Shown piece after piece: positions 20,979-40,596 of a stretch of DNA of 64,000 bases. The position numbers and the translations under genes were made by a program. The stretch covers positions 101,204 through 165,203 of the forward strand of contig CAZNPA010000002.1 in the NCBI GenBank assembly GCA_964575095.1, read 5' to 3'. Below the pieces are notes generated by a model that was not told where the DNA came from, ran no database searches, and was given only the letters and a program-made list of their open reading frames with translations. Positions within the stretch are counted from its first letter, which is position 1; every line of letters begins with the position of its first letter. The stretch comes from an uncultured Rickettsiales bacterium. Lineage in GTDB: Bacteria; Pseudomonadota; Alphaproteobacteria; Rickettsiales; SXRF01.

Positions 20979-21020
20979 GGTAATATGCTGAAATAAAGCA
21001 TGATTTGTTGCTGTCGGAAC

Positions 21021-21036
21021 TGGCACGGGAATCGCA
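21021..21036 (+). promoter_or_regulatory. sigma54 promoter (flgI operon)
   Basis: TGGCAC-GGGAA-TCGCA; GG-N10-GC spacing exact. Confidence 0.7.
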
Positions 21037-21116
21037 ATGATATTGGAGACAATAATTCTGGCAGAGGTTTTTTTATGACATATCCATGCCGTAGCATTTC
21101 CTGGGGTGACAAGACG

Positions 21117-22241: not shown

Positions 22242-22242
22242 T

Positions 22243-22596
22243 ATGAGCATCAACGCCGGCGCTGCCGCAACCTTGCTCACCAATGGCCAGAATCAAGCGC
22301 TGGCAGCCGCTTCGCGCATGACGCATCACAGCCTGCTGCAGCGCGTCCGGCCGATGACCGATCTGGAGGCAAGCCGTGCGGCGCAGGATTTTGAATCGAT
22401 GTTTGTCGCGCAGATGCTGGAGCCGATGTTCGGTGATTCGGTCGGCGAAGAGCTCTTCGGCGATAAAGATACGCAGGACGTCTACAAAACCCTGCTCATG
22501 GACGAATACGGCAAGCTAATCGCCAGGGCCGGTGGCATAGGAATTGCAAGTACAGTGAAGAAGGAACTGCTTTCATTACAGGAGGTACAGTCATGA
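22243..22596 (+). CDS. flgJ: FlgJ-like rod-binding protein (no muramidase domain)
   Basis: AAQDFESMFVAQML..MF, VYKTLLMDEYGK.IA..GGIGIA. Confidence 0.85.
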   Translation: MSINAGAAATLLTNGQNQALAAASRMTHHSLLQRVRPMTDLEASRAAQDFESMFVAQMLEPMFGDSVGEELFGDKDTQDVYKTLLMDEYGKLIARAGGIGIASTVKKELLSLQEVQS

Positions 22597-23051
22597 GCAC
22601 CCATACGAATCCGGCGGCGGAGACGCAGCCTAAGATCGATATTCAGAGCGTCATTACGCTGACGGCGCGTCTGGCGCAGCTTCTGGCCGAAGAGGTGGAT
22701 CTGCTGTCAGAGATGAAAGTCTCGAAGATCGAAGCCCTGCAGCAGGAAAAACTGTTTCTGGTCGGCGCGCTCGAATCGCAGCGCAAGCTGGTGGACAAGC
22801 ACCCCTACCTCGTCGATACCATTCCGTCGCAGGACAAGAAGGATCTGCAGGAGGTGGTCGATATCTTCAACACCATCCTCGAGGAGAATCACCGCAAGCT
22901 GCTTTTAGCCAAGGAGATCAACCACAAGATCGTTCAGGCGATCACGCAGGTGGTCAAGGAAAGCACGCAGAGCAAAAGCTACGACGGGCAGGGCATCAAC
23001 GGCTCCGCGCCTTTCGAAACATTGTCGGTAACGCTCAACAGTACCGCGTAG
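22593..23051 (+). CDS. FlgN-like flagellar export chaperone
   Basis: Helical ~150-aa protein (LLAEE..LL, K..L, L.EN..KL) directly before flgK. Confidence 0.65.
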   Translation: MSTHTNPAAETQPKIDIQSVITLTARLAQLLAEEVDLLSEMKVSKIEALQQEKLFLVGALESQRKLVDKHPYLVDTIPSQDKKDLQEVVDIFNTILEENHRKLLLAKEINHKIVQAITQVVKESTQSKSYDGQGINGSAPFETLSVTLNSTA

Positions 23052-23072
23052 CCGGAGCAGGGGGATTGATCC

Positions 23073-25787
23073 GTGAGTCTTAGCCTTGCATTAAACACCG
23101 CGCTTTCCGGCCTCAACGTCAACCAGCAGGCGCTGGCGGTCTTGTCGCAGAATATCGCCAACGCCAACACGCCGGGCTATAGCCGCAAGATTATCAACCT
23201 GCGGGCGCAGTCAACCGATGGCAACGGCAGCGGCGTCAGCATCGACAGTATCACCCGCCGCGTCAACGAGTTCCTGATCCAGTCGATACGTTCGCAGAAT
23301 TCGGTGTCCGGACGCGCCAGCATCATCAACGATTTTTCCGGCCGCACGCAGCTGATGCTGGGCAATCCCGGCGCAAACAACAGTCTGAACGCCTATGCCA
23401 CCGGCTTTTTCAACACCATGCAGTCGTTGGCGCAAACGCCGGAAGATACGTCGCTCAAGGCCAGCACCATCAGTAACGCCGTGACCATGGCGCGGCACAT
23501 CAGCGATCTGGCGGGAAACCTACAAGATTTGCGCTTTCAGGCCGACCAGAGCATCAGCTCCTCCATCACCACCATCAACGGCAATCTCAAGCAGATTTAT
23601 AATTTGAACTCCATCATCACCCAGAACATCTCGCTCGGAAAACCGGTTACCGAACAGCAGGACCAGCGTGACATGCTGCTCAAGGATATTGCAAACTACA
23701 TGAACATCGAGACGTTCAACCGTCCCGACGGCGCGATCAACGTCTCGTGCGCCGCCGCCGTCCTTGTCGATGAAGGCCTGTACCAGCTCGCCTACACGCC
23801 GGCTGCTTCCGCGTCAGCTCTGGCCAACGATACACCGCTGGCACCCATCCTGGCGTATCGCCTCGACAGCGACGGCAACCCTTCCGGCGCCGGCACGACG
23901 CTGGTTTCCGGCGGTACGAGCTCACAGGTCGTCGGCAGCATCACCAGCGGCCAGATTAAAGGCCTGCTCGATCTGCGCGACAAGCAACTTTCCAGCATGT
24001 TGCAGCAGCTCGACACCTTCGCCGTCACCCTGCGCGATAAAGTCAACGCCGTCCATAACGCCGGCACCAGCTACCCCGGCACCAATGCCCTGACCGGCAT
24101 GCGCGAGGTTTCGCCGCAGGAAACCACCGAATGGACCGGCCGCATGCGTCTGGCCATATTAGGCGCGAGCGGCCAGCCAGTCCTTGCCGGATATTCCGGC
24201 CAGATGCTGACGCCGATGACGCTTGACCTCGGTTCGCTCGACACCGGCAACGGTCCCGGCCAGCCTTCGGTGCAGGGCATCATCAACGAGATCAATCAGT
24301 ATTATGGCATCCCGCAGAACAAGGCGCAGGTCGGCAACCTGAACAATATACAGCTTGCCTCCGACGTGAGAAGCCTGCCCGGCTCGCCGCCGATTTTCAA
24401 ATTCGATCTCGATCTGGAAAATCTCTCCGCCACCACCTCACACGTCTATGTAACCGGCGTCTCGGTGCTCGACGACACCAGCGCCGCGATGACGGTGACG
24501 CAAAGTCCGTCCTCGATCGACATCGACGGCAGCAACAGTTTCGTCACGTCGAACGGCAGCGGCATCGTCACCATCAATACCGACGGTGCGCACGGGCTGG
24601 CCAACGGCGATAACATCCTGCTGCCCGACCTCGCCACTCTCACCACCGCCGTCAACCCCGCTGCCGACATCAACGGCATCCCGCTGACCGAGCTCGCCGG
24701 CAAAACTTTTACCATCAGCAACGTCACCTCCACCAGTTTTCAGATCACCGCGACATCGTCCGCCAGCGCCAGCGGTAACGTCGACGCCGTCGGCGGCACG
24801 TTCATGCCGGAATATTCGGAAGTGGCCGCCGGACAATCGAAACGCACCACCGCCGACGGCATGATCATCACCAGTCTGGCCGCCAACCAGACCTCGGCCT
24901 ACTACACGGTCACGGTCGACGTCACCGTCGACGACGGCGATGGCAACATCACGACATCGCAGGTGACCTACCGTGTTGATAATTCGCAAAGCAACCTCCT
25001 CAACAAACGTTACGCTGCCACCGGGGTTACCGACGATGGCGAGTTGCTGCTGCCGACCAGCAACCAGACGCTCGCCCGCGCCATCCTGGTCGATGAGAAC
25101 GGTGTTGAGCTGCCCAGAATCAACGGACAGTACCCGTCCACCCGGTCGGGTTTTCTTAAAATTCTCGCCACGAACAGCGCCTATACGGTGGCCATCGACA
25201 GTTTGGACAGTGCCGATCAGGGTAATGCCGACAGCAGCATTGCCGCCACCAGCCGCGGCTTTTCGCACTATTTCGGCCTCAACAATTTCTTTGATGATGA
25301 CGGCGATCCGGCGATCGCAGGTAGCGCCATCAACCTGCGGGTGACGCAACGCCTGATCGACAACCCCAACCTGATTTCCACCAGCACGCTGAGCCAAAGC
25401 AGAAGCTCCGCAGACGACCCGGTCTATACCTATGAGCACAACATCGGTGACAACGATATCATCCAGCAGATGTACAGCCTCGGTCTGGCAACGACGACGT
25501 TCGCCGCCGCCGGCGGCCTCGGCGCCACCGTGCAGACTTTCAGCGGCTACGCCAGCCAGATCATCAGCACTGCCGCCGTCAACGCCCTGTCCGCCAAGAA
25601 CGACGATGTGAACGCCCAGACCCTGCTCAACGGCTACGATCAGCAGGAAAATTCCATCAGCGGCGTCAATCTAGATCAGGAACTGGGTAATACCGTCATC
25701 TATCAGAACGCTTACGCCGCGTCGGCGCGTGTCGTCACCGTCGCCAACACGCTGTTCGACGCGCTGCTGCAGGCATTCAATAGTTAA
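23073..25787 (+). CDS. flgK: Hook-associated protein 1 (very long, 904 aa)
   Basis: SQNIANANTPGYSRK N-terminus; SGVNLDQELGN..IYQNAYAASARV C-terminus. GTG start. Confidence 0.95.
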   Translation: MSLSLALNTALSGLNVNQQALAVLSQNIANANTPGYSRKIINLRAQSTDGNGSGVSIDSITRRVNEFLIQSIRSQNSVSGRASIINDFSGRTQLMLGNPGANNSLNAYATGFFNTMQSLAQTPEDTSLKASTISNAVTMARHISDLAGNLQDLRFQADQSISSSITTINGNLKQIYNLNSIITQNISLGKPVTEQQDQRDMLLKDIANYMNIETFNRPDGAINVSCAAAVLVDEGLYQLAYTPAASASALANDTPLAPILAYRLDSDGNPSGAGTTLVSGGTSSQVVGSITSGQIKGLLDLRDKQLSSMLQQLDTFAVTLRDKVNAVHNAGTSYPGTNALTGMREVSPQETTEWTGRMRLAILGASGQPVLAGYSGQMLTPMTLDLGSLDTGNGPGQPSVQGIINEINQYYGIPQNKAQVGNLNNIQLASDVRSLPGSPPIFKFDLDLENLSATTSHVYVTGVSVLDDTSAAMTVTQSPSSIDIDGSNSFVTSNGSGIVTINTDGAHGLANGDNILLPDLATLTTAVNPAADINGIPLTELAGKTFTISNVTSTSFQITATSSASASGNVDAVGGTFMPEYSEVAAGQSKRTTADGMIITSLAANQTSAYYTVTVDVTVDDGDGNITTSQVTYRVDNSQSNLLNKRYAATGVTDDGELLLPTSNQTLARAILVDENGVELPRINGQYPSTRSGFLKILATNSAYTVAIDSLDSADQGNADSSIAATSRGFSHYFGLNNFFDDDGDPAIAGSAINLRVTQRLIDNPNLISTSTLSQSRSSADDPVYTYEHNIGDNDIIQQMYSLGLATTTFAAAGGLGATVQTFSGYASQIISTAAVNALSAKNDDVNAQTLLNGYDQQENSISGVNLDQELGNTVIYQNAYAASARVVTVANTLFDALLQAFNS

Positions 25788-25804
25788 AACCGGAAGGGAA
25801 CGTT

Positions 25805-26737
25805 ATGACCGTGGACCGCATCAGCAGCTACAATCTCGTACAGAGCACGCTGATTAACGTCGGCAAGGCGCAGGCTGAACTCGCGAACCAGCAGATTCAG
25901 CTTTCCAGCGGGTTCAAATCCCAGGATTTCGCCGGCATCTCAGGCCAGGCGGTGCAATATTTGCAGTTGCAGGACAAGCTCGCGCGTACGGACAACTATA
26001 TAAGCAACAACACGCTCATCAAGCCCCGCCTTGATACCACCAGCACCATACTCGATCAGGTCATTAACACCGCCACCAGCCTGCAGAATATTATCTCACA
26101 GCACATAGGCGATACGGAAGACACAGGCGGCGGCGCCGTCTTCGACACGCAGCTGCATAATTTGTGGCAAACGCTGATCAGCCAGCTCAATACCACGCTG
26201 GAAGGGCGCTACCTGTTCAGTGGCAGCGCCACCTCGACACCCGCTGTCGATGCTAATAACTTCCCGACTTTACTGGATCCGGATACGCCGACGCCCGATG
26301 ACGGCTACTACCTTGGCAACCAGAACGACCTTACCGTCCGCGCCAGCGACAGCGTGCAGTTCACCTACAACGTACGCGCCGATGCGCCTGGGTTCCAGAA
26401 AATCTTCGCCGGACTGGCCATGGCGCAGCTGGGTGACAGCCTTCCCGGCGACGCCGGCGATGCCAAGATGGCGATTGCCGAAGATCTGGTGCAGGCGGGG
26501 TTGAAAGAAGTGATCACCATACGGGCGCAGGTGCATGCGAATTCGGTCGCATTGAATAACATCAATAGCGATCTGGGCGCCCAGACTGCTTATTTTAATG
26601 GGGTCAGGGACAACCTTGTCAATACCGATCTGGTCTCCGTATCGACGCAGGTGGCGGTCAATCAGGGCATATTGCAGGCATCATTTCAGGCCTTTGCCCG
26701 CATTACTTCCTTGCAGCTTTCGAATTTTTTACGCTAA
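25805..26737 (+). CDS. flgL: Hook-associated protein 3
   Basis: Follows flgK; LSSGFKS, EGRYLFSGSAT.TPAV, QASFQAFARI..LQLSNFL. Confidence 0.9.
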   Translation: MTVDRISSYNLVQSTLINVGKAQAELANQQIQLSSGFKSQDFAGISGQAVQYLQLQDKLARTDNYISNNTLIKPRLDTTSTILDQVINTATSLQNIISQHIGDTEDTGGGAVFDTQLHNLWQTLISQLNTTLEGRYLFSGSATSTPAVDANNFPTLLDPDTPTPDDGYYLGNQNDLTVRASDSVQFTYNVRADAPGFQKIFAGLAMAQLGDSLPGDAGDAKMAIAEDLVQAGLKEVITIRAQVHANSVALNNINSDLGAQTAYFNGVRDNLVNTDLVSVSTQVAVNQGILQASFQAFARITSLQLSNFLR

Positions 26738-26775
26738 ATTAGGACTCGTGGTATAGTATAAGGCAAAGGTATCGC

Positions 26776-27255
26776 ATGTTACATCCTCAGGCACCGGCTA
26801 GCGGCAATACGCTCCCTTTAGGGGTGGCGCAGGTCGTGCAATCACGCTTCGGCGATATCAGCGTTGATACCAGCAAAGCGCTGGTGTTTCCGCACGGGTT
26901 ATTGGGATTGCCGGATAAACTGAATTATGTGCTGGCCGGTTTCCCCAGCGAAAAGATGAAACAGTTCATGCTGCTGCAGTCGCTGGACGACAAGGCGCTG
27001 TCGTTCATCACTCTGCCGGTGGCGGCGGAAAACCCAATCCTGATTGCTGACGATATCAAGGCCGCCTGCCGTGAACTGCAAATCACCGAAACGAATCTTG
27101 GGTTGCTGCTGGTTGTAACCGTGCACCGTTCGCCGGGCACGGTAAAACTTTCGGTCAACGCCCGCGCGCCGATACTGATTGACGGCGCCCGCAGGCTGGG
27201 CGTGCAGCATGTCTTCCAGAACGACCGCTACAGCGTTCAGCACATGCTGAGTTAA
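26776..27255 (+). CDS. fliW: Flagellar assembly factor FliW
   Basis: SRFG.I, FPHGLLGL, FMLLQSLDD..LSFI, SVNARAPILI, QHVFQNDRYSVQH. Confidence 0.9.
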   Translation: MLHPQAPASGNTLPLGVAQVVQSRFGDISVDTSKALVFPHGLLGLPDKLNYVLAGFPSEKMKQFMLLQSLDDKALSFITLPVAAENPILIADDIKAACRELQITETNLGLLLVVTVHRSPGTVKLSVNARAPILIDGARRLGVQHVFQNDRYSVQHMLS

Positions 27256-27263
27256 ACAGCTCC

Positions 27264-28868
27264 ATGCAAACCGCCGCTGATTTATTTGCCCGGTATCGCG
27301 AGGCGGAAAAACTGCTCGCCGCCGGTGACCTGCAAAAAGCTGCCGGCCTTACTCAGGAAATACTCAGCGCCGACCCCGGCTTTGCCTACGGCTACCATCT
27401 TATGGCGTCGTGCTTCCGCGTCACCGGCGATCTCAATCAGGCGACCGCGTTTGCTGAAATGGCGGTTGCGCGTGCGCCGGAAGTCGCCCTGTTTCATATG
27501 GCGTTGGGGCAGATACGCATCATACAGAAAGATTGGAAAGCAGCGACGGCCGACTTTAAAAGAGCGCACCAGATCGAACCGCGCCATCCGATGCATCTGC
27601 TGCTGCTGGCGCATGCGCAGGCAGAGCAGGGCAACTACCTGGAGGCATTGAAATTATGCGACCGCGCCCGTGCCTGCGCCGATATCCCCCTGGTTGATGA
27701 ATACGAAGGCGGTTTCCGGATGAGTCTTGGCGATTACGCCGCCGCTGAGAATTTTTTCGACCGGCTGATCGAGCGCGAGCCGAAGAGCGAGAAAGGCTAT
27801 GCTCACAAAGCTGAGCTGTTTCTCCGTCTGGGCCGCCATGAAGACGCCGAGGAATACTTCATTAAGGCCCTCGGCATCAATCCGAAATCCTATGAAGTCC
27901 TGCAGGGCATGTCGCTGGTCCATTTTCATCGCCAGAAATTGCCCGAAGCCGCCGCTTTTGCCGCGCAAGCGGTGGCGATCAATCCGTTCGAATGGAAAAG
28001 CGCGATGCTGCTCGGAGAATTATGGCTGATAGACCGTAAATATGCTGCCGCTGAGCAAATGCTGAAAAAAGTATTGCTCCAGTGTCCCGACGACGTTCGC
28101 GCCAGACGCCATTTAATCACCGCCCTACTCGGGCAGCAGAAGAAAGACGAAGTCAGAGAGATGGTGAAGCAGGTATTAGCGAAAAAACCGGACGATCCGA
28201 TCCTCAAATATTTCGACGCCATGCTCAACGGCGAACACCTCAATACCGCGCCGCCGGAATATGTCGCTGGCCTGTTCGACAGTTACGCGGATGCCTTCGA
28301 CGGACATTTGCAGCTTCTGCAATATAACGTGCCGGTGGAAATAGCCGCTTTGCTACGACATTTAAATGCCGGAAGAACTGATTTGAGCTTGCTCGATCTG
28401 GGTTGCGGCACCGGCAAGATGGCCGAAGCCTGCAAGGAGTTCACCGGTCTTCGCGTCGGCGTCGATCTGGCGCCGAAGATGCTGGAGAAATCCAAGAACA
28501 AGCAGATCTATGACAGTCTGCATCATGCCGACATCGTGCAGTTCATGCGGGCAAGCGATCGCCGTTTCGATCTTATCACCGCCGCCGACGTTTTAGTTTA
28601 TGTCGGCGATCTGGCGGGGACCATGCAAGCAGTGCGGCGGATGATGAATAACGAAAGCCTGTTCGCATTTTCTATTGAGAGTGAAGACGGAGACGGCTTC
28701 CATCTCCATCCCACCGGCCGTTACAGCCATTCGCTGAATTATGTGCAGAAAACTGCGAGCGATGCGGGACTGGTGTTGGTAACGCGACAGGACGTCGTAT
28801 TGCGTATGGAAAATCAGGAACCGGTCGCCGGGTCGTTATTGATATTCAAAAAAACGCAAGTCAACTAA
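27264..28868 (+). CDS. TPR-repeat plus class I SAM-dependent methyltransferase
   Basis: ~300 aa of TPR helices, then YVAGLFDSYADAFD..L..L.Y.VP, LLDLGCGTG, GVDLAPKML, FDLITAADVLVYVGDL. Confidence 0.9.
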   Translation: MQTAADLFARYREAEKLLAAGDLQKAAGLTQEILSADPGFAYGYHLMASCFRVTGDLNQATAFAEMAVARAPEVALFHMALGQIRIIQKDWKAATADFKRAHQIEPRHPMHLLLLAHAQAEQGNYLEALKLCDRARACADIPLVDEYEGGFRMSLGDYAAAENFFDRLIEREPKSEKGYAHKAELFLRLGRHEDAEEYFIKALGINPKSYEVLQGMSLVHFHRQKLPEAAAFAAQAVAINPFEWKSAMLLGELWLIDRKYAAAEQMLKKVLLQCPDDVRARRHLITALLGQQKKDEVREMVKQVLAKKPDDPILKYFDAMLNGEHLNTAPPEYVAGLFDSYADAFDGHLQLLQYNVPVEIAALLRHLNAGRTDLSLLDLGCGTGKMAEACKEFTGLRVGVDLAPKMLEKSKNKQIYDSLHHADIVQFMRASDRRFDLITAADVLVYVGDLAGTMQAVRRMMNNESLFAFSIESEDGDGFHLHPTGRYSHSLNYVQKTASDAGLVLVTRQDVVLRMENQEPVAGSLLIFKKTQVN

Positions 28869-28878
28869 GTGCATCACT

Positions 28879-30057
28879 ATGACCACCGTTCAACGCGCGC
28901 AGGCGCTCTCGCAGTTTTCCTGCCTGGGCGATAAATGCCCCGACACCTGCTGCCACGGCTGGTCGATGCAGGTGGATCCGCCCACGCTCGCGCGTTATAA
29001 AAAGTCCGCGCCGGAATTGCTGGATGCGGTGGAGCCGGAGCAGGGCGCCGACAATTACATCATGAAGAAAGATCCGGCCAGTCTCTATTGCGTCAAGCTG
29101 GAAAACGGCCTGTGCGGCATCCAGAAAAAATATGGCGATGCATTCTTGAGCGACGCCTGCCATTTTTATCCGCGCGTGACGCGCCGCCTGGGCGATACGG
29201 TGCTCATGACCGCCACCGTCTCGTGCCCGGAGATCGCGCGGCTGATGCTTACGGAAGAAAACCCCGCAGCGTTTGCAGCGGCGGAATACAGCCGTTTGCC
29301 GGTGTCGATGAAAGATTATCTGCCGGCGGAATTGACCGACGAAGAGGCGCTGGCGATACACCGCGCATTTATCGATGCGGTGGACGACGACGCAGTTCCA
29401 GCCGAGCGCGTTTTTTTGCGCATCGCTCACGCCACCCGCGTGCTGGAAATGTTCGACAAGAAAGAATGGCCGCAGGTGGCGCCTCTTTATTTGAGGCTGG
29501 CGGACGGCTTGATGCCGGCGGCGGAGCATAATCCCGCCGATCCGTTTAACGTGTTGCACGCGCTTGCCGGGCTCATCGTCGCTTCGCATAAACCGATGAG
29601 CGCGCGCCTGCAACAAACCATCGGCGACATGGAAAAAGCGTTGTGCGTAAAACTGGATTGGCAAAATGTGCTGATCTCGGCCGATGAAAAAAGTGCTGAT
29701 GCGTACCAGCGGCTGAAAACAGTATGGCGGAATGAAACAGCACAACATTTAGATAAAATTTTACGAAAAATGTTGAAGATGCAATTGTCGCTGGCATTAC
29801 ATCCGTTTGCCGGCCTTGGGGAAAATTTTTCCGAGCGCGTGACAATTATCGGCGTACGATTTGCCACGTTTAAACTTGCGCTCATGTGCGCCTGTGATAT
29901 AAATGATAAGGCGTCCCGCGAAGAATCCGCGGTGCGTATCGCGCAGAGTCTGGCGCGTTTCCTCGATCACCTCGGCGATGCAACCTTCTCGTTGCAGATA
30001 TATAATGAGACCGGGTGGGTCAAGGAAACCAGAATGCGCGGTTTACTGGAAGCCTGA
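28879..30057 (+). CDS. fliB: Flagellin lysine-N-methylase (FliB-like)
   Basis: FSCLGDKCPDTCC.GW, C..L..GLC.IQ..YG...L...C..YPR, SCPEIARL; immediately upstream of flagellin. Confidence 0.85.
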   Translation: MTTVQRAQALSQFSCLGDKCPDTCCHGWSMQVDPPTLARYKKSAPELLDAVEPEQGADNYIMKKDPASLYCVKLENGLCGIQKKYGDAFLSDACHFYPRVTRRLGDTVLMTATVSCPEIARLMLTEENPAAFAAAEYSRLPVSMKDYLPAELTDEEALAIHRAFIDAVDDDAVPAERVFLRIAHATRVLEMFDKKEWPQVAPLYLRLADGLMPAAEHNPADPFNVLHALAGLIVASHKPMSARLQQTIGDMEKALCVKLDWQNVLISADEKSADAYQRLKTVWRNETAQHLDKILRKMLKMQLSLALHPFAGLGENFSERVTIIGVRFATFKLALMCACDINDKASREESAVRIAQSLARFLDHLGDATFSLQIYNETGWVKETRMRGLLEA

Positions 30058-30102
30058 ATAAAACAGGACGGATACAAAAAACATCACTAGGTTCTGATGC
30101 CG

Positions 30103-30118
30103 TTAACGGTAAGTTAAC
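30103..30118 (+). promoter_or_regulatory. CtrA box upstream of flagellin
   Basis: TTAA-cggtaag-TTAAC. Confidence 0.75.
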
Positions 30119-30224
30119 CATTAGCCCTTATGATCGGTATTTAATAGTGGCTCCATCACTACCTGCCACATTCGGTGAAAGCATGTAGCTTTCGTGAGTT
30201 TTAACCATCCATGTAGGAGATTTT

Positions 30225-31988
30225 ATGGCTATCAATTCCATTAATACAAATATCGCTGCCTATTTTGCTCAGCAAAATATCGGCAACGCCTCGGGTCTGG
30301 CGGCCGCTTCGGTTGCCCGTCTTTCGAGCGGTAACCGTATCGTGCAAGCGTCCGACGACGTGACGGCGCTCGCCATTGGTACCGCCCTCCAAACCCAGCT
30401 CAGCGCGATCAGAACCGCCCAGACCAACGCCGCGCAGGGCAGCTCGCTCCTGCAGGTGGCCGACGGCGCTGTGGCGCAGATCATCGCCATTCTGCAACAG
30501 CAGCAATCCATTGCCAACCAGTCGCAATCCGGTTCGCTGACCGACACCAACCGCGGCTTCCTCCAGACGCAGTTCGCAAAACTGACGGCGCAGATCGACG
30601 CTATCGCCAACGGCACGACGTTCAACGGCGTGTCCTTGATCGACGGCTCGCTTGCCACCGGTGGTGGTGGCGCCAGCTCGATCAGGAGCGCCAATATCGG
30701 TGCTGCTACCGCTGCTGCCGTAGTGACCGGGACTACTCCTGGAACCGACGTGCTCGGATTCTCCAGCTTCAAAAATACCGCCGCTGCCGACAATGACATC
30801 GCTTTCGTCGGTGACCTCTCTAAAGGTATATGGGGCGTAAGTGATTCCGGCGTTGCCAACACCTTTATCATCAGCTTTGCTATCAACAGCCAGACGTATC
30901 AGGGCCAGTGGGTAGCCGGTACCGATGCCGATGTTGATCTCGTAAGCACCGATGGCAAAGCTACGCTTGTTCTGGATATGAACGCTTCTTCCACGCTGGA
31001 TCCTGCCGCCGCATCCTATGCGGACGTCAACGACTTAAAGGATCAGTTGGAAACCTTCTTCAGCGACGCTACCGCTTATGCCATCCATAAGGTAGCGACG
31101 ACCTTTGCCAAGGACGCCAATAATAACGACATAGCCGGATCGGCTATTCGCTTACTGGATACGGCGGGCGGGGTGCTTGACGGGTTCAGCGGCACCAACG
31201 TTAAGATCCAGTCGGCGTTATTCAGCGGCGCGAGTCTGCCGGCGATTTCGACCTTCTCGGCTGTAAACTTCGGTACCAACACCATATTCTCCGTGTTGGT
31301 CAACGGCGTGAAGTACAGTCAGGACAGCTCCATCGCGACCTATGGCGCCGGTGCGACCACACTCGCTCTCTTCCAGAACGTCGGTCCCACGGCGACTGGG
31401 GGCACCGTTGCTCTTGGCACGGCGGGCCATCTCTACCTGTTTAAGAACGGCGATTCTTTCTCGAAAGAGTATATCGACATTACCTTCACCGGCGTTATTT
31501 CCAACGCTCTCAGGGTCGATACGGCAGCTAACGTCCAGAAGGTCGCTGATGCCTTGAATACGGCCTTCTCCGGTAGCGCTACCGGCGGTTCGGGCGGTCT
31601 CAACTTCCAGTTGGGCACGACTTCGGATTCGATCATCAACGTCACCCTGGCCAGCGCGCGAGCAAGCGCCCTGTTCAACGGTGCATCGCTTGACGTATCG
31701 ACGGCCGGTGGCGCCGCCACGGCTGCAACCGCGGTTACTAGCGCGATCAACCTTGCGACGGCGTCACGCGCCACTATCGGTGCGTACGAACAGCAGGTCG
31801 GGTTCGCTACCGCTACGTTGCAAAGCAGTGCACAGAACGTCGCTGCCGCAGCAAGCGCTCAGCTCGATACTGACATCGCGCTGGAATCCACCGCCTATGC
31901 GACCAATCAGGTCAAGCTACAGGCTGGTATCTCTGTGTTGGCTCAGGCCAACCAGCAGCTGCAAGCTCTGTTGAAACTGATCGGTTAA
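30225..31988 (+). CDS. fliC: Flagellin (587 aa, large variable region)
   Basis: INTNIAA, RLSSGNRI..ASDD, SLLQVADGA, FNGVSL; C-terminal DTDIALEST......KLQAGISVLAQANQ. Confidence 0.97.
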   Translation: MAINSINTNIAAYFAQQNIGNASGLAAASVARLSSGNRIVQASDDVTALAIGTALQTQLSAIRTAQTNAAQGSSLLQVADGAVAQIIAILQQQQSIANQSQSGSLTDTNRGFLQTQFAKLTAQIDAIANGTTFNGVSLIDGSLATGGGGASSIRSANIGAATAAAVVTGTTPGTDVLGFSSFKNTAAADNDIAFVGDLSKGIWGVSDSGVANTFIISFAINSQTYQGQWVAGTDADVDLVSTDGKATLVLDMNASSTLDPAAASYADVNDLKDQLETFFSDATAYAIHKVATTFAKDANNNDIAGSAIRLLDTAGGVLDGFSGTNVKIQSALFSGASLPAISTFSAVNFGTNTIFSVLVNGVKYSQDSSIATYGAGATTLALFQNVGPTATGGTVALGTAGHLYLFKNGDSFSKEYIDITFTGVISNALRVDTAANVQKVADALNTAFSGSATGGSGGLNFQLGTTSDSIINVTLASARASALFNGASLDVSTAGGAATAATAVTSAINLATASRATIGAYEQQVGFATATLQSSAQNVAAAASAQLDTDIALESTAYATNQVKLQAGISVLAQANQQLQALLKLIG

Positions 31989-32006
31989 TTAGGATTTTAG
32001 GAAAAT

Positions 32007-32032
32007 CCGGGGTGGGAAGGTTCCCACCCCGG
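32007..32032 (+). terminator. Strong hairpin after flagellin (no U-tract)
   Basis: ccggggtgggaa-gg-ttcccaccccgg, 12-bp arms. Confidence 0.6.
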
Positions 32033-32050
32033 GCAACCTAAGGAGGATTT

Positions 32051-32446
32051 ATGCCAATAGGAATAGCAGCAATCGGACCACGGTTACCCTTACCGGTAGC
32101 CACCCCTGTCCTGCCCGATCCTGTCATGCCGCAAGTCACCGCGACTTCGGTGGGCACACCGCTCCCTGTACAGCCCGTTCCCATACCGGGTCGTCACCCG
32201 GTAGGAAAGGCGGACGTTACCGCCAAGGCCGTAGAGGATAGGCAGTTTGCTACAGTGCAACAGGCAGCCAGGGATGCGTTTCCCGTCAGCGACCAGAAAT
32301 TCACCATCTACAAGGGTCACGACGGTCAATACATCACGCGCTTAACCAGCTTGCGCGACGGTAGGGTTACCTACTATCCGCAGCCGGAAGTGTTCAGGTT
32401 AAGCAGAAACGCTGGCGGCGAGTCGTCGTTTAAGATTACCGCTTAA
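32051..32446 (+). CDS. FlaG-like protein with Pro-rich N-terminus
   Basis: Lies between fliC and fliD; C-terminal FTIYK....YITRL..L.DGRV..YPQPE resembles the FlaG fold; AAGGAGG RBS. Confidence 0.55.
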   Translation: MPIGIAAIGPRLPLPVATPVLPDPVMPQVTATSVGTPLPVQPVPIPGRHPVGKADVTAKAVEDRQFATVQQAARDAFPVSDQKFTIYKGHDGQYITRLTSLRDGRVTYYPQPEVFRLSRNAGGESSFKITA

Positions 32447-32563
32447 ACCTTGCCGAAGGCATGCTTCTTGCTTTGTCTTCGGCGGTTAAGAGGTGTACAC
32501 TATAGCCGTCCGGGCTTGTTCAGGCCGGACGGCGTAGGTACCGGTCTTTAAAAGGATGGGCAT

Positions 32564-34732
32564 ATGGTATCGTCGATAGTACTCGGCAATTTTTTTAACG
32601 TCACCGACATCAACGGCAACACCCGTGGTGTGTTCGGCGGCGCGGGCGGGTCCGGCCTCAATACCGAAGCCCTCGTCAATGGTCTGGTGGCAGCGCGTGC
32701 CGGCCCCATCATCCAGATAGAAGACCAGCTTTCGCGTATATCGGAACGTGCCTCGGCGCTGAACCAGTTTCAGCAGTTGCTGAGCAGTTTCCAGAGTGCC
32801 GCCGATGCGCTGCGCAACCCGCCCGGCGTCAACAATTTTTCCAACAACGCCTTCGCCTATACCTCGGCAACGGTAGTCTCGAACACCTCGGTTGCCGCCA
32901 ATACCTACATGACGGTGGACGCAGCGCCGGGCGCTACGCCGCAAAATCTTAACGTCACCTATATCACCTCGCTGGCGGCGGCGACCAAGCAGCTGACCGG
33001 CGATTTCGCCATCGCCGATGCCGATACGGCCGGACTGGTAGTGGCCAGCGGCGCCGTCGCTCACCAATTTAATGCCGGAACCTTTACCCTCAAGGGCCAA
33101 TCGATCACGCTGACCACGACCGACACCTTGAACAGCATCGCTGCGAAATTCAACGCCGTATCGGGTAGCACCAACATCCGCGCCACCGTGATCAAGGTGT
33201 CGGATGGTCACTACGAGCTGTCGTTCACCGCCAAGAAAACCGGCACTACCAACGGCTTCGACCTCGCTGATTCCGGCACCGTCACCGACGCCAGCAACGT
33301 GATTACCAACATCGTCAGCGGCGCCTCCGGCTTTACCACGCCACAGGCGGCCGCCAATGCCGTTTTCAAACTGGACGGCGTCACCATCACCCGCTCCAGC
33401 AACGATATCAGCGATGTTGTTGAAGGGCTGACCTTCCATTTGAAACAGAAAATCGCGGAAGATCCGTTAGACCCGCCGGCGACGCCGACGAGTCTGCTGA
33501 TATCGGTGACGTCGGACACCAGCATTGCGCAACAGGCCATCACCTCTTTCGCCAACGCTTATAATTCCATTCAGGCGTTTGCCGCCCAGCAACTGCAGAC
33601 CAATGGCGACGGCACGTTCGCCGATACCGCCGTATTGCACAGTAACCAGACGTTCCTGCAGGCGCTTAACTCCATCACCACGCAGATGGGATCGAAAGTG
33701 TCGGGCGTCGGCAGCACCTTCAATAACCTTGCTGATATCGGGCTCACGTTCGATACCCAGCCCAAAAGCCAGAACAGCCCGGAAGTAAAAAACGTGCTTA
33801 ATATCGATAGCAACAAACTCGCATCCGTATTGCAGACCGACTTCGACAAGATCGCCAATTTGTTCCAGTTCACCCTGACGGCGGACAACACCAACCTGCG
33901 CGTGTTCGAAAGCCCGAAGCCGCTCGGTGTCTCCGCCTTCACGGTCGCCATCAACCAGTTTGCCACCCAGACCACCGGCAACATCACCGTCGCTGACGCC
34001 GATACCGCCGGCGTCGTCGTCAACGCTTCGCCGACGGACGGTCAGTTCCTGGCCGGCACCGTAACCATCAACGGGCAGGCCATCACCCTTACCGACACCG
34101 ATACCTTAAATACCATCGCTGCGAAGTTCCAAGCCGTGGCGGCGACCACCGGTCTCAGCGCTGCCGTCTCTTCCACCGGCGCCGGAACATTCAAGCTCAC
34201 CTTCACCGCTGTGCCGCAAAGCGGCAAGGTCAATAAATTCAGTCTGGAATCAACCACGGTCGATCCCACCGGCGTGTTTGACGAGTTGGGCCTTACCTCC
34301 ACCGGCACCTATACCGCCACCTACGGTGTGACCACCGTCGACCTTACAGCCACCGTGACCGCCGGCAGCAACGCCGTGTTGCTCGCGGCGCCGTCCAGCT
34401 CGTCGCTGTCCGGGCTGGAACTGATTTATGGCAGCGACGCTGCCGCGACCATCACCATCACCACCACCGAAGGGCTTGGGCATACGCTCTACAATACCGC
34501 GGATGATACGGCTGCGGTCGACGGTACCATCGATACCGAAATTGCAAGCCTTAGCGACAGAGATACCAAGCTCCGGGCGCAGGTTGCCGATATCAACAAG
34601 CAGATTACCGAATACCGCGATCAGCTGCTCCTGAAGTTCGGTGCGCTCGAACAGGCAATCTCCAGGGTTAACCTGTTGCTGCAAAGCCTGAACGCGCAAC
34701 AGCTGGCGCAACAAGCCGCTGCCAACAATTAA
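32564..34732 (+). CDS. fliD: Flagellar filament cap protein with internal duplication
   Basis: SGLNTEALV..LV, A.NA.F..DGV.ITRSSN.ISDV..GLTF.L, L.DIGL; C-terminal L..KFGALEQAI..N. Confidence 0.92.
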   Translation: MVSSIVLGNFFNVTDINGNTRGVFGGAGGSGLNTEALVNGLVAARAGPIIQIEDQLSRISERASALNQFQQLLSSFQSAADALRNPPGVNNFSNNAFAYTSATVVSNTSVAANTYMTVDAAPGATPQNLNVTYITSLAAATKQLTGDFAIADADTAGLVVASGAVAHQFNAGTFTLKGQSITLTTTDTLNSIAAKFNAVSGSTNIRATVIKVSDGHYELSFTAKKTGTTNGFDLADSGTVTDASNVITNIVSGASGFTTPQAAANAVFKLDGVTITRSSNDISDVVEGLTFHLKQKIAEDPLDPPATPTSLLISVTSDTSIAQQAITSFANAYNSIQAFAAQQLQTNGDGTFADTAVLHSNQTFLQALNSITTQMGSKVSGVGSTFNNLADIGLTFDTQPKSQNSPEVKNVLNIDSNKLASVLQTDFDKIANLFQFTLTADNTNLRVFESPKPLGVSAFTVAINQFATQTTGNITVADADTAGVVVNASPTDGQFLAGTVTINGQAITLTDTDTLNTIAAKFQAVAATTGLSAAVSSTGAGTFKLTFTAVPQSGKVNKFSLESTTVDPTGVFDELGLTSTGTYTATYGVTTVDLTATVTAGSNAVLLAAPSSSSLSGLELIYGSDAAATITITTTEGLGHTLYNTADDTAAVDGTIDTEIASLSDRDTKLRAQVADINKQITEYRDQLLLKFGALEQAISRVNLLLQSLNAQQLAQQAAANN

Positions 34733-34742
34733 GGGAAGCGTC

Positions 34743-35213
34743 ATGCAGCATAAGTACCAAGCCTATGTCGCAGCGACGCAAACGGTAGCCAAAACGCGGC
34801 AGATTGTGATGCTGTATGACGGCGCCATCCGCTGCGTCCAGCAGGCCAGGGAGGCGATACAGGATCGTCGCATCGAGGACCGTTATCGCCTGCTTATGCG
34901 TGCTTCGGACATTATTATCGGTTTGCAGAGTTGTCTGGATTTCGAAAACGGTGGCGACGTCGCCAAGGCTTTATACCAGTTTTACGCCTCGATCAGTAAC
35001 CGCATATTCTCCATCCATCGCAACAACAGCGTCGAAACCTGCGAGGAACTTATTTCCGAGCTCAAGCAGATGCGCGACGCCTGGCAGGACATCGACAATC
35101 AGTATGTCAGCGCCGCCGCCGGCGCGCCTCCTGCACCATCGCCGGTTGCATCGGAAGGAAACGGCCACGCTTCCGCGGCTGCAGAGACATCGGCGGCAAC
35201 ATTTTCCGCCTAG
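34743..35213 (+). CDS. fliS: Flagellin export chaperone FliS
   Basis: QIVMLYDGAIR, I..L.S.LDFENGG.VA..L..FY, L..MRDAW. Confidence 0.93.
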   Translation: MQHKYQAYVAATQTVAKTRQIVMLYDGAIRCVQQAREAIQDRRIEDRYRLLMRASDIIIGLQSCLDFENGGDVAKALYQFYASISNRIFSIHRNNSVETCEELISELKQMRDAWQDIDNQYVSAAAGAPPAPSPVASEGNGHASAAAETSAATFSA

Positions 35214-35325
35214 ATAGCCTCCGGCATTTTTTTCCCCTCGCACATTCGCCCGTCGGTCCAAGCGGAAGGGATGCGCGTTCCGGACCCCGCTGTCCGCTAC
35301 GGAAAAATATAGAATTATTATTTTA

Positions 35326-35371
35326 AATCAGTGTATTAAATAAAATCCGCCTTTTTGGCACATTGCTTGCA
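35326..35371 (+). promoter_or_regulatory. sigma54 promoter with upstream IHF-like site (fliK-flgD-flgE operon)
   Basis: TGGCAC-ATTGC-TTGCA at 35356-35371 (consensus); AATCAG-TGTA-TTA at 35326-35338 in an AT-rich tract. Confidence 0.8.
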
Positions 35372-35410
35372 GGTACTGCCCCAGTGCATTAGCAAACCGG
35401 GGAGGCAAGT

Positions 35411-37237
35411 ATGCCTAATATTTCTGCATCGCTGATAAGCGCGCTCACCGGCGCCGCCACCGCGGCCAATACCAACGTCGCGCCGGCGGCAAACGCAGCC
35501 GGACAAGAGAAGGACAATTTCCAATCCCTGCTTGATATAGGCATCAATACCCCCGACGATAACGCGGGCAATGACCGCGCCGTTGTCGAAAAAGATCGCC
35601 GTAGAGAAGAGAATAACGTGCAGGCGGCACCGGTGAATATTCCCGCCGAACGGCTGATTCCCGATAAAAAACCGCAGGCGGATAACGAAGATAAAGAAGA
35701 TGGAATTCCTGCCGCCGTGCGGCCTTTTCAAAATTCCGGCCAACATGCCGGTAAGCCAAAGGCGAACGCCAAACCGGATAATGCGCGCGAGGATATTAGC
35801 GACGATGTGCGCCCGGCTGCATCTTCCGCCACTGATGTTACTGCCGATGTGGAGGCTGCCGCAGCTGGCGCGGCCAGTACCGTCGCCGATAACGGTAATA
35901 TTTCCACAACGGCGGCCGGCGCTCAAACATTGGCCATCGATCTGGAGCAAATACTGACGCAGATTACGGTGAACTTGGCGGTGCCGGGCGGCGACGATCT
36001 GCCTGGTCAAATTCAAACCGCCGCTTCCGTAGCGACGGCGCCGGAGTTACCCGTGGCGCTTCTGACGCTTAACCAACCGCAATTCCTGCCTGATCCGATA
36101 AGCGGCGCTGATGACATCCTTGTCGTCTTGCCGTCGCAACCAACGGCCATAGGCCCGGCGCTTCCCGTGCCGCCGGCGATACCTTCTTTCGATGGCCTGC
36201 TGAAGAACGTCTGGCAGACACTGCAAAACATCAACGACAGCTTCTTCGGCGCGGATGATGGGAAGCCTCTGTCAACAATGCCGCCACTGGCCGCTATGCC
36301 GCAGGGACCGCTGCTGCGCCTCAAGAGCGATCTGAAGGCGGCCTTCGCGCTGTTCGACCAGTATAACGCCGGTACGATAGACGCCGCCACCTTGCTCAAT
36401 CAGATCAAGCCGATGCTAAACGACATGCATCGCATCATGGCTCGTCTCGATACCAAGCCCGATGCGATGGCCGGGCTGTCGTTAAATCCGCTGGGCGCGG
36501 GAGATCTGCAGAGTGCGGCGCCGGTCATCGCGCCGAAAAAAGAAACGTCGGTTGCGAATATTCCTAACATGGATGCAGCGATCGCGGCGCAGAATCTCAA
36601 CAGCGCGCTAACGACGAAGGCGGAGCAGGGCGCGCTTTTTGCCTCCACCATCGCGATGGAAAACGCGCTGGGAAATAACGTCGGCAATCGCTCCGGCGCC
36701 GATGCTAACGCCAATCAGAACCTGCCGCAGCCGGTGCTTGCCATGCGCGCTGCCGATCCGGCGCGTGAAATGGCGGCGACGGATGCCACCGGCTTTGCCC
36801 GCGCGCTCGGCGCCGCCGCCCGCGGCCCCATCGTCGATCAGGTGGTGTTCCATATCCGCGTCGCCAGAAGCGATGGCAGCAGCCGTATCCACATCCAGCT
36901 CGAACCGGAAACGCTGGGCAAGCTGGACATCAAACTGCATGTCGATGCCGAAGGGAAAACCGGCGTCACCATCACCGCCGACAACAAAAACACATTGGAT
37001 TTATTGCAGCGCGACACCAAAGGCCTGGAACGCGCGCTGGCCGATGCCGGACTCACCGCCGACAGCGGCAACCTGAATTTCAACCTGCGCGGCGAGCAGC
37101 AGGGACAGGACAACAGCCCTTATCCCGCGTTCAACTACCAGAAGGCGATACCGGAAGAAGAAAAGATACCCGCTGCCGACACGGTGTCCGGAAGTTACGT
37201 CATCCAGACGGGTGATGGCGTGGATATCACGATTTAA
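35411..37237 (+). CDS. fliK: Flagellar hook-length control protein
   Basis: Long low-complexity N-terminus; C-terminal IQLEPETLGKLDIKL....EGK...I.ADN..TLDLLQRD...LERAL..AGL. Confidence 0.9.
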   Translation: MPNISASLISALTGAATAANTNVAPAANAAGQEKDNFQSLLDIGINTPDDNAGNDRAVVEKDRRREENNVQAAPVNIPAERLIPDKKPQADNEDKEDGIPAAVRPFQNSGQHAGKPKANAKPDNAREDISDDVRPAASSATDVTADVEAAAAGAASTVADNGNISTTAAGAQTLAIDLEQILTQITVNLAVPGGDDLPGQIQTAASVATAPELPVALLTLNQPQFLPDPISGADDILVVLPSQPTAIGPALPVPPAIPSFDGLLKNVWQTLQNINDSFFGADDGKPLSTMPPLAAMPQGPLLRLKSDLKAAFALFDQYNAGTIDAATLLNQIKPMLNDMHRIMARLDTKPDAMAGLSLNPLGAGDLQSAAPVIAPKKETSVANIPNMDAAIAAQNLNSALTTKAEQGALFASTIAMENALGNNVGNRSGADANANQNLPQPVLAMRAADPAREMAATDATGFARALGAAARGPIVDQVVFHIRVARSDGSSRIHIQLEPETLGKLDIKLHVDAEGKTGVTITADNKNTLDLLQRDTKGLERALADAGLTADSGNLNFNLRGEQQGQDNSPYPAFNYQKAIPEEEKIPAADTVSGSYVIQTGDGVDITI

Positions 37238-37253
37238 CCGAGGAGAAAACTGT

Positions 37254-38006
37254 ATGGCTGTCAACGCTGTAAATACCCCGGCTGCTACCCCTCCGAGCAA
37301 AAGCCAGCAAGGGCAAAATGCGCTCGACAAAACCTATTCGGATTTCCTGAGGTTGTTGACGACGCAGTTGCAAAATCAGGACCCGACCAACCCGATGGAC
37401 ACCATGCAGATGACGCAGCAGATCGCAACGCTGTCGCAAGTTGAGCAGCAGCTCAACACCAACAGGAGCTTGGAGCAGTTAATCGCGCTCTACGGCCAAA
37501 CGCAATACAACAGCGTTGCCGGCTACCTCGGCAAGGAAGTGGAAGCGCCCGGCAACCAGGGCGCAGTGATAAGCGGCAAAGGCCGTTTCGTCTATTACAT
37601 GCAAAGCCAGCCGACGAACTTCGGCGTTACCGTCAAGAATGCCGACGGCGCCGTCGTCTACACCGCCAAAGCGACGCAGAACGCGGAAGGAAACTTCGTC
37701 TGGACCGATGCCGCCGGCGTGGTGCTCGATCCGCCGCCGAACATCCCGATGGCGAGCGGCCGCAACGCCTTCGTCTGGAACGGCAAGAACAACAACGGCC
37801 AGCAGCTGGCCGACGGCACCTATACCATCTCCGTCGATGCCAGAGATGCCAGCAACAACGCCATTCCCACGCAAACCTATGTCAACGGCATCGTTACCTC
37901 GATCGATAGTGCCGGCGGTCAGGTCTATGTCTCATTCGGCGATATCTCATTACCGCTGACCAGCGTCACCACCCTTCGTCAACCTGAACAACAACCCACC
38001 ATTTAA
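37254..38006 (+). CDS. flgD: Hook capping protein
   Basis: FLRLLTTQLQNQDPTNPMD..QMTQQIA.LSQVEQ; F.WNGK...G.QL.DG.Y. ATG 37254 after GAGGAG. Confidence 0.95.
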   Translation: MAVNAVNTPAATPPSKSQQGQNALDKTYSDFLRLLTTQLQNQDPTNPMDTMQMTQQIATLSQVEQQLNTNRSLEQLIALYGQTQYNSVAGYLGKEVEAPGNQGAVISGKGRFVYYMQSQPTNFGVTVKNADGAVVYTAKATQNAEGNFVWTDAAGVVLDPPPNIPMASGRNAFVWNGKNNNGQQLADGTYTISVDARDASNNAIPTQTYVNGIVTSIDSAGGQVYVSFGDISLPLTSVTTLRQPEQQPTI

Positions 38007-38034
38007 CGAAACACTCTAAAAAAGGAGAAACCCC

Positions 38035-40596: not shown

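Follow-up and report, generated by a model that had tools for sequence, protein, structure and literature searches.

A predicted beta-barrel module related to phage virion domains, inserted in both the hook protein FlgE and the hook-associated protein FlgK of an uncultured Rickettsiales bacterium

Introduction

Why should two different subunits of one flagellum carry the same extra segment, and what might that segment do there? The question is raised by a flagellar gene cluster within a 64,000-nucleotide stretch of DNA from an uncultured Rickettsiales bacterium (positions 101,204 to 165,203 of contig CAZNPA010000002.1, assembly GCA_964575095.1), referred to below as the window. The flgK gene of this cluster (23073-25787, plus strand, GTG start) encodes hook-associated protein 1, with 904 amino acids, and its flgE gene (38035-40596, plus strand) encodes a hook protein of 853 amino acids. 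An initial annotation, made from the letters of the window, had noticed a beta-rich pattern common to the two proteins, likened it to the E1-FCCH-like modules of phage virion proteins, and proposed that a phage-type surface module had been recruited twice to decorate the hook and the hook-filament junction.

Both genes are recognized by their domains and their neighbors. FlgK contains the Pfam domain FlgK_D1 (PF22638, E=1.7e-38) together with the axial termini Flg_bb_rod (PF00460) and Flg_bbr_C (PF06429), matches Salmonella FlgK (9go6) at 8.4e-26, and is followed downstream by a flagellin-N-type flgL. FlgE contains the same two termini along with LlgE_F_G_D1 (PF22692, D1) and FlgE_D2 (PF07559, D2), all four above the Pfam cut-offs; FlgE chains in the PDB match it with E-values down to 4e-32, and fliK and flgD lie directly upstream.

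As a whole, the evidence assembled here is best explained by an outward-facing barrel insertion domain that behaves as a cassette in FlgE and contributes a structural outer layer, a reading to which we assign a probability of roughly 0.6. Its parts differ in strength. The identity, fold class and surface location of the module can be stated with high confidence; the structural outer-layer role, which is argued by analogy, stands at a little under even odds.

One module in two axial proteins

The genes and peptides of the initial annotation were found in place: its FlgK segment (24540-24752) corresponds to residues 490-560 and its FlgE segment (38872-39051) to residues 280-339. The complete module, of about 90 residues, is somewhat longer than these first-noted segments. 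The FlgK copy spans residues 482-575 (24516-24797, plus strand) within a central region, residues ~335-821, that cannot be aligned to known FlgK, and is matched by a FlgE-derived profile and in hhalign. The FlgE copy spans residues 272-363 (38848-39123, plus strand) at what will be called insertion site A; it is supported by profile, AlphaFold and Foldseek matches and by a natural indel in a homologous FlgE, P0090, which is described below.

When the two whole proteins are compared by BLASTP, residues 486-549 of FlgK align with residues 276-328 of FlgE at 31% identity (E=6e-4), the N-termini match at E=1e-5, and no other match is worth noting. A pairwise identity of merely 29-31%, in segments that are both rich in Thr, Ser, Gly and Ala and so able to inflate alignment scores, leaves room for the view that the similarity is a chance product of composition. 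Profile comparisons speak against chance. A 92-position profile was seeded with the window FlgE segment and iterated solely on the FlgE homologues of other organisms, with both window proteins kept out; it recovers the FlgE module at E=6e-23 and, with 51 bits and E=4.6e-15, the FlgK module as well. Across all other six-frame open reading frames (ORFs) of the window it finds nothing better than E=2, save a weak match internal to FlgE (E=0.055). In a comparison of a 28-sequence FlgE alignment with a 120-sequence FlgK alignment by hhalign, the module (FlgE 278-349 against FlgK 488-570) is the top shared region, with 97.4% probability and E=9e-12, and outscores even the D0 termini that axial proteins have in common. 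Judged by these comparisons, the FlgK and FlgE segments are one homologous module, as the initial annotation had claimed.

The module is also selective in its placement. A six-frame scan of the window for the motif HG[LFIVMY]..GD.[IVL] returns just the FlgK and FlgE module sites. Flagellin, FliD, FlgL, FliK and FlgD lack it, by motif and profile in the window and among the best 150 representative matches of the module.

Place of the module in FlgE and FlgK

A different objection is that the two segments could simply be the standard D2 domain of FlgE and the standard D2/D3 domains of FlgK. Pfam places D1 of the window FlgE at residues 85-130 and D2 at residues 609-732 (PF07559, E=7.4e-13, profile positions 20-141 of 142), so that the C-terminal part of canonical D2 (residues 609-735; 39859-40239, plus strand), which aligns to residues 608-848 of Campylobacter jejuni FlgE, lies well apart from the module. 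Against C. jejuni FlgE (5jxl), the family profile of FlgE gives alignments over positions 6-211 (residues 3-208) and 590-828 (residues 608-848), and against Salmonella FlgE in the core only. For FlgK, the corresponding profile finds counterparts in Salmonella FlgK at 5-318 and 471-551 alone, leaving window residues ~335-821 unaligned. Searched with the module profile, the PDB gave no FlgE or FlgK chain, even at E<=10. These results bear out the earlier statements that the pattern is absent from canonical hook proteins, since the Salmonella and Campylobacter alignments spare the central inserts, and that it is extra to the standard D0/D1/D2 core. Chance and standard domains are both refuted by the FlgE-only profile, the hhalign result, the profile search of the PDB and the cassette-like P0090 indel, and we regard them as exceedingly improbable.

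The FlgE module is thus an addition to the core, nested in an insert of about 430 residues that interrupts D2. It is preceded there by a beta-rich segment (residues ~190-271; 38602-38847, plus strand), for which the full-length model has confident strands at 192-196, 229-234, 239-244 and 247-249. Further along lie two tandem alpha/beta units (residues 389-470 and 483-563; 39199-39723, plus strand) that are modeled with a predicted local distance difference test score (pLDDT) of ~90 and are not copies of the module. These units, of about 80 residues each, resemble one another (30% identity over 57 residues, E=0.004) and appear similar to the flagellin 'IN' motif, though Pfam gives no match for them. 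The weak FlgE-internal profile match (E=0.055, residues ~398-475) had suggested a second, degenerate module, a candidate ruled out by the finding that this stretch belongs to the helix-containing alpha/beta units that resemble each other. A Gly/Asp/Ala-rich linker (residues ~547-598; 39673-39828, plus strand), located by pairwise alignments and a dip in pLDDT, marks insertion site B, which is empty in the window. No Pfam label was found for the rest of the FlgE and FlgK insert regions.

The FlgK module sits in a central, hypervariable stretch flanked by the two D1 halves. In axial proteins the inner D0/D1 core is built from the two ends of the chain, and the middle of the sequence gives rise to the outer domains. 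The central parts of FlgE and FlgK point outward in hooks and junctions of solved structure. Because of this arrangement, both modules would be expected on the outside of the hook and the junction, a surface position that follows from topology. In the Salmonella hook D2 is the outermost domain, and the D3 and D4 domains of Campylobacter form further outer rings (PMC5097172).

Fold and family of the module

A model of the window FlgE module was computed with AlphaFold2 on an alignment (A1) of 70 diverse copies. The model is all-beta with a mean pLDDT of 84.5, and the module is accordingly predicted to be an autonomously folding beta-barrel. In Foldseek searches of the PDB, phage endosialidases come first, with E-values of 1e-4 to 1e-3 and query TM-scores (TMq) of 0.65-0.73; the phi92 enzyme (4hiz) matches at E=1.4e-4, and the K1F enzyme (1v0e/3ju4) at a TMq of 0.73, with a root-mean-square deviation of 2.5 Å over ~89 columns. 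Next come the FCCH domains of Uba1 and Uba6 (TMq ~0.55), the LKA1 tailspike, a Klebsiella K1 lyase, the N-terminal barrels of V/A-ATPases and the T1 tail tube. The modeled fold also matches the Uba1/Uba6 FCCH domains and the isolated FCCH structure 2v31 with a Foldseek probability of ~1.0, at a TMq of 0.47-0.56. Among the predicted viral structures of BFVD, it is phage tail fibres, spikes and baseplate proteins that match best, at a TMq of up to 0.79.

Profile searches point the same way. Against the PDB, the A1 profile matches the barrel of the phi92 endosialidase (4hiz residues 189-258) at E=1.8e-4, the E1 FCCH domain at 1e-3, the I-domain of the P22 coat protein at 1.4e-3 along with other coat proteins, K1F endoNF at 0.014, and tail-tube proteins weakly. 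In Pfam scans of single copies at E<0.01, PF16190 (the E1 FCCH family) is found in 26 of the 70 (best 9.7e-8) and PF12195 (End_beta_barrel, cut-off 35 bits) in 9 (best 8.5e-7), the window FlgE copy giving no PF12195 match at that threshold. The kinship with PF12195 lies instead in the profile and fold likeness to its solved barrels given above. Both window copies stay below the curated Pfam cut-offs of the two families, which makes the module a distant relation of each and not a curated member. It is closest to the endosialidase beta-barrel, and falls in one remote-homology group with that barrel, the FCCH domain of E1 and the I-domain of the P22 coat protein. The proposed E1-FCCH-like character thus holds in part: PF16190 is detected in each window copy and in the 26 relatives, but both window matches lie under the curated threshold and the closest match is another barrel.

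The residues conserved in the module follow the pattern GS..VTV...HGL..GD.V..G...GIP...LNG.F.V. Mean column identity is 26%, and the surface residues are highly variable. The composition is rich in Thr, Ser, Gly and Ala, with 0.0% Cys in all copies pooled; a small, Cys-free barrel would suit a subunit that is exported unfolded and folds without help.

That the closest solved relatives are carbohydrate-active phage proteins (endosialidases, the K1 lyase and the LKA1 tailspike) brings up a rival role, in which the modules act as lectins or adhesins that bind glycans or other ligands and the hook and junction serve as an organelle by which the cell attaches to a host, to prey or to a biofilm matrix. 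The endoNF beta-barrel bears a sialic-acid site. Multivalent tandem copies, such as those found in many FlgE homologues (see below), would suit binding by avidity, and the sequence was found in metagenome runs from bioreactors, which are biofilm-rich. Yet past the fold signature no putative binding pocket is conserved on the variable surface, the hook is short, close to the cell and rotates fast, and the usual flagellar adhesins, flagellin and FliD, are without the module. We consider an adhesive role unlikely.

Distribution and copy number across the clade

The closest species-level genomes are metagenome-assembled genomes (MAGs) that their depositors labeled uncultured Rickettsiales, Pseudomonadota or Alphaproteobacteria, with FlgE identities of 44-51%. 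A homologue search found 910 FlgE proteins, of which the best 120 were surveyed for copy number, together with 120 FlgK homologues. The lengths of these 120 FlgE proteins fall into discrete classes ~93 residues apart that track the number of modules: 738 residues with no copy, 802-857 with one, 920-952 with two, 1004-1047 with three, mostly ~1100 (six at 1017-1034) with four, ~1200 with five, and 1193-1299 with six or seven.

The FlgE copies occupy two insertion sites, A at window residues ~265-285, where tandem arrays are found, and B at window residues ~547-584, after which the extra copies of P0044, P0080, P0062, P0018 and P0041 fall in pairwise alignments. P0041 has four modules in all, and P0100 has seven. 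The one FlgE without a module, P0090 (738 residues; JGI 3300028569, Ga0247843_1000011), lacks exactly window residues 265-355, a clean indel of 91 residues. Its fliK-flgD-flgE genes lie inside a histidine-biosynthesis operon (L082:7366-12217), and no flgK was found within 10 kb of flgE on that contig. At the other extreme, copies inside one FlgE can be up to 74% identical, and block duplications are visible. A four-copy flgE (L004, 10812-11544) contains DNA direct repeats 465 nt apart that are 71-89% identical, which indicates a recent tandem duplication of two modules.

FlgK behaves differently. Of its 120 homologues, 119 have exactly one copy, at residues 485-496, with lengths of 893-913 residues. 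In at least 29 FlgE/FlgK pairs, matched by eye on an equal 'longest contig' length as a proxy for origin from the same genome, FlgE ranges from 823 to 1299 residues and FlgK only from 898 to 911. The FlgE module is thus a cassette, cleanly present or absent, expanded in tandem at two sites and found in 0 to 7 copies, whereas FlgK is fixed at one. The single FlgK with a second copy is P0227 (997 residues, second copy at 788-874), which reveals a second permissive site in that protein.

Variation of this kind is what might be expected of a shield or variable coat, in which the module array keeps flagellotropic phages, grazers or proteases away from the conserved surface of the hook and the junction, and diversifying selection drives the changes. 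Copy number differs among related lineages, with recent duplications, and few parts of FlgE are less conserved than the module (0.60, against 0.82-0.85 for D0/D1). There is also a precedent in C. jejuni, where the variable surface regions of D3/D4 have been proposed to reflect selection on exposed epitopes (PMC5097172). That said, the FlgK copy is fixed in number and position, and variability would be equally expected of any unconstrained surface domain, so that a shielding role appears distinctly unlikely.

Retention tells a further story. Despite identities of 45-65%, the module is kept in 119 of 120 FlgE and all 120 FlgK homologues at constant positions. It is a conserved trait of a clade of uncultured "Rickettsiales/Alphaproteobacteria" MAGs and not an oddity of one genome, and its retention at such divergence argues for function. 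The contrary view, that a promiscuous, fast-folding domain is merely tolerated in permissive loops as a neutral passenger with no flagellar role, can draw on the scatter of the module over thousands of unrelated proteins of many architectures and on P0090, a natural FlgE that does without it. Against it stand the retention just described and the cost of exporting unfolded inserts in ~120 hook subunits, which should purge useless ones, and we hold it to be very unlikely.

Among the FlgE loci of species-representative genomes the module occurs in 4 of 80, namely those of the nearest MAGs, and it was absent from the other giant FlgE proteins, those of Elstera, Sulfuritalea, Nitrosomonas, Coxiellaceae and Planctomycetes. 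Module-less giant flgE genes, 2.7-3.7 kb long, were seen in Elstera, Sulfuritalea, Derxia, Nitrosomonas, Coxiellaceae, Comamonadaceae and Planctomycetota (loci L017, L019, L034, L035, L045, L047, L054, L055, L057, L058, L064, L066 and L062), which implies that other, uncharacterized hook inserts exist.

Occurrence beyond flagella and origin

When the A1 profile was run against 1.84 billion representative proteins, it matched 6405 clusters at E<=1e-3, of which 1559 pass E<=1e-10 and 64 pass E<=1e-30; a single protein can have as many as ~20 copies. FlgE-type termini are found in only about 15 of the best 150 module matches. In a sample of 72 non-flagellar matches, 45 belong to phrog_3287, annotated 'virion structural protein', and 32 match phrog_28581 over the module itself; the remainder include tail proteins, baseplate wedge subunits, a tail lysin and a tailspike. 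One module protein, P0275, is related to podophage proteins annotated 'stabilization', 'constituent' or 'tail' from phages of Pelagibacter, Roseobacter, Caulobacter, Sinorhizobium, Ochrobactrum and cyanobacteria. The module group is mainly an outward-facing add-on of phage virion proteins, and the earlier likening to a phage-virion-type module was sound, as the phrog_3287 share, the BFVD matches and the P22 I-domain match attest. The PHROGs matches of the window copies are weak (E 0.03-0.1), and a tblastn comparison of the window FlgE module and the consensus with 50,697 cultured-phage records revealed no close phage donor, with no match even at E<=10.

The top family match, P0241, touches the flagellum from another side. 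It is a protein of 1611 residues with an N-terminal DUF1217 domain and nine module copies, encoded near fliL (L081:5989-10824), and DUF1217 ORFs also lie beside flgE in Falsigemmobacter loci (L036:18539-19354 and L043:18536-19501). Proteins of the P0241 type may be a third flagellum-associated carrier of the module.

How the module reached the two axial proteins can be approached through the relationships of its copies. FlgK copies are 43% identical among themselves and 28% identical to FlgE copies. In neighbour-joining trees they form one clade in the full data and in 28 of 50 bootstraps; on average, 95% of them group together in a single clade. This grouping points to one ancient event in FlgK, after which the copy was inherited vertically. 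FlgE copies have a mean best identity of 45% to sampled non-flagellar copies, as against 38% to FlgK copies, are not monophyletic with respect to the former and mix with phage-type copies, a comparison in which the non-flagellar sample is biased towards FlgE-like copies, having been drawn with a profile built mostly from FlgE copies. Across the 50 bootstraps the sister of the FlgK clade is FlgE-type in 28 and non-flagellar in 17. The idea that the module was recruited twice is therefore compatible with the data, though this split sister group leaves it short of established. The one thing that suggests a direction from phage to flagellum is that the module is far more abundant and diverse in phage proteins.

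A proposed structural outer layer

Returning to the structural reading, FlgE and FlgK would be exported through the flagellar channel and polymerize, so that the modules end up outside the hook and the 11-subunit junction ring. There they would add a further layer of protein on the outside, one that makes the hook thicker, stiffer or better protected, and the FlgK copy would carry this layer on from the hook to the junction. The analogy is with systems in which comparable domains have been placed. In C. jejuni, D3 and D4 add contacts within and between protofilaments, and the authors concluded that they make for a sturdier hook; in siphophage tail-tube proteins the FCCH domain is turned to the outside of the tube (PMC5097172, PMC13576161). 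The adhesive, shielding and passenger readings discussed above could coexist with a structural role.

Several observations weigh against this interpretation. Both window copies fall below the Pfam curated cut-off for PF16190, with 15.7 bits (E=0.016) for FlgK and 13.5 bits (E=0.079) for FlgE against the 29.5 required. The full-length FlgE model, which has a pLDDT of 85-97 over residues 180-710, is weak in D0/D1, as is usual for the monomer of an axial protein. The conserved residues of the module are those common to its endosialidase, E1 and P22 relatives, and they are silent on any flagellum-specific contact. It is also difficult to see how the extra copies could make precise lattice contacts when the copy number varies freely from 1 to 7. 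Finally, the placement of the module in the assembled hook is deduced from topology.

A more ambitious version of the structural reading is possible but doubtful. It would have a domain common to phage virions form a continuous coat on the hook and the FlgK ring, with the FlgE copy number (0-7) acting as an evolvable dial of diameter, stiffness or surface identity, modules exchanged between phage and flagellum, and the FlgK copy kept to match the outer lattice of the hook.

The flagellar gene cluster

The gene cluster runs from 21000 to 40596 on the plus strand (21000-38006 without flgE), as identified by Pfam scans. Its order is flgI, a rod-binding flgJ-like gene, a weakly FlgN-like ORF, flgK, flgL, fliW, a gene for a tetratricopeptide repeat (TPR) methyltransferase, an unassigned ORF of 392 amino acids, flagellin (587 amino acids), a 131-residue ORF likewise without assignment, fliD (722 amino acids), fliS, fliK, flgD and flgE, after which comes a DUF2671 gene.

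The FlgN-like ORF ahead of flgK (22593-23051, 152 amino acids, E=0.0012) fits a chaperone for FlgK and FlgL. Between fliW and flagellin (27264-30057), the gene for the protein with TPR and S-adenosylmethionine-dependent methyltransferase domains (534 amino acids) and the 392-residue ORF, which has no Pfam match, are candidates for enzymes that modify flagellin or the hook. Flagellin (30225-31988) and FliD (32564-34732) are far above canonical size and yet without the module; this organism would seem to have a flagellum that is bulky over all of its extracellular extent, with different inserts in different subunits.

Long antisense ORFs lie over flgE (38722-40518, minus strand, 598 amino acids) and flgK (24438-25439, minus strand, 333 amino acids). 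They are most likely by-products of a GC-rich coding strand for Thr, Ala and Gly, with no sign of being genes. The cluster is flanked upstream by a gene for a LexA/CI-like protein with a helix-turn-helix and an S24 peptidase domain (19226-19834) and downstream by a tRNA gene (41689-41761).

Novelty and significance

Extra outer FlgE domains and hypervariable outer flagellin domains are already known. A full-text literature search for FlgE with FCCH returned no paper, and broader searches found none on such an architecture. Four features appear to be undescribed: this type of domain in FlgE, its variation as a cassette from 0 to 7 copies, its presence in FlgK, and its kinship with phage virion modules. 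Precomputed PF16190 matches do exist on many of these FlgE entries, so that databases record the module implicitly.

The same cassette occurs in two axial proteins, with a copy number that is naturally graded from 0 to 7, and this natural series could act as an experiment on outer-domain mass and hook mechanics. It may also illustrate how small, chaperone-free beta-barrels move between phage virions and flagella, both of them extracellular polymers that are exported and then assembled. In practical terms, payloads might be displayed on flagellar hooks with the module as a candidate scaffold, and the survey flags ~900 giant metagenomic FlgE proteins whose annotation hides their architecture.

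Comparison with known systems

The endosialidase beta-barrel (PF12195; 4hiz of phi92, 1v0e/3ju4 of K1F endoNF) is the best match in both profile and fold. Like the module, it has the motif GS..T.T....HGL..GD.V and is a small barrel nested in a larger host domain; unlike it, its host is a glycosidase tailspike and not a flagellar axial protein. The E1 FCCH domain (PF16190) shares the matches in 26 of the 70 relatives and the E1 profile match, but its structural match is weaker than that of the endosialidase barrel, and the module is found without any E1 context, so no ubiquitin-related function is expected of it.

Two phage assemblies offer parallels in architecture. The FCCH domain of siphophage tail-tube proteins (8k98, 9n71, 9l0f) is also a small outward barrel fused to the subunit of a helical tube (PMC13576161), a likeness that is marginal in score (profile E 0.15-0.7, Foldseek TMq 0.54); it is an N-terminal fusion to the tube protein, not a loop insertion, and is present in a single copy. 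The I-domain of the P22 coat protein (2m5s, 2xyy) and related capsid insertion domains match over the core strands at 1.4e-3 to 8.5e-3, and likewise are surface barrels inserted in the subunit of a large assembly. They differ in being of borderline significance, in falling outside the top 50 Foldseek matches in the PDB, and in having a host with the HK97 fold.

The closest parallel within flagella is with domains D3 and D4 of the Campylobacter and Helicobacter FlgE proteins (5jxl, 5az4); to our knowledge, extra outer hook domains are known in detail from these two genera alone. Those domains are inserted at the same place in D2, and the Campylobacter FlgE, at 851 residues, is nearly as long as the 853-residue protein of the window, but they are not repeated cassettes and are not common to FlgK. 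The near-equal lengths had raised the possibility that the inserts are homologous, which was ruled out when no significant alignment was found over the insert. Neither 5jxl nor 5az4 is among the top Foldseek matches of the module or of full-length FlgE, and neither is matched by the module profile at E<=10; the full-length FlgE model instead retrieves FlgE D1/D2 cores and, separately, endosialidases and E1 enzymes, with no Campylobacter FlgE. Since the site is shared and no Foldseek or profile relation is found, the insert of the window FlgE occupies the D3/D4 position but has a different origin. The hook described here thus appears to represent an unrelated solution, in another phylogenetic group, built with a cassette that also decorates the tails, capsids and spikes of phages.

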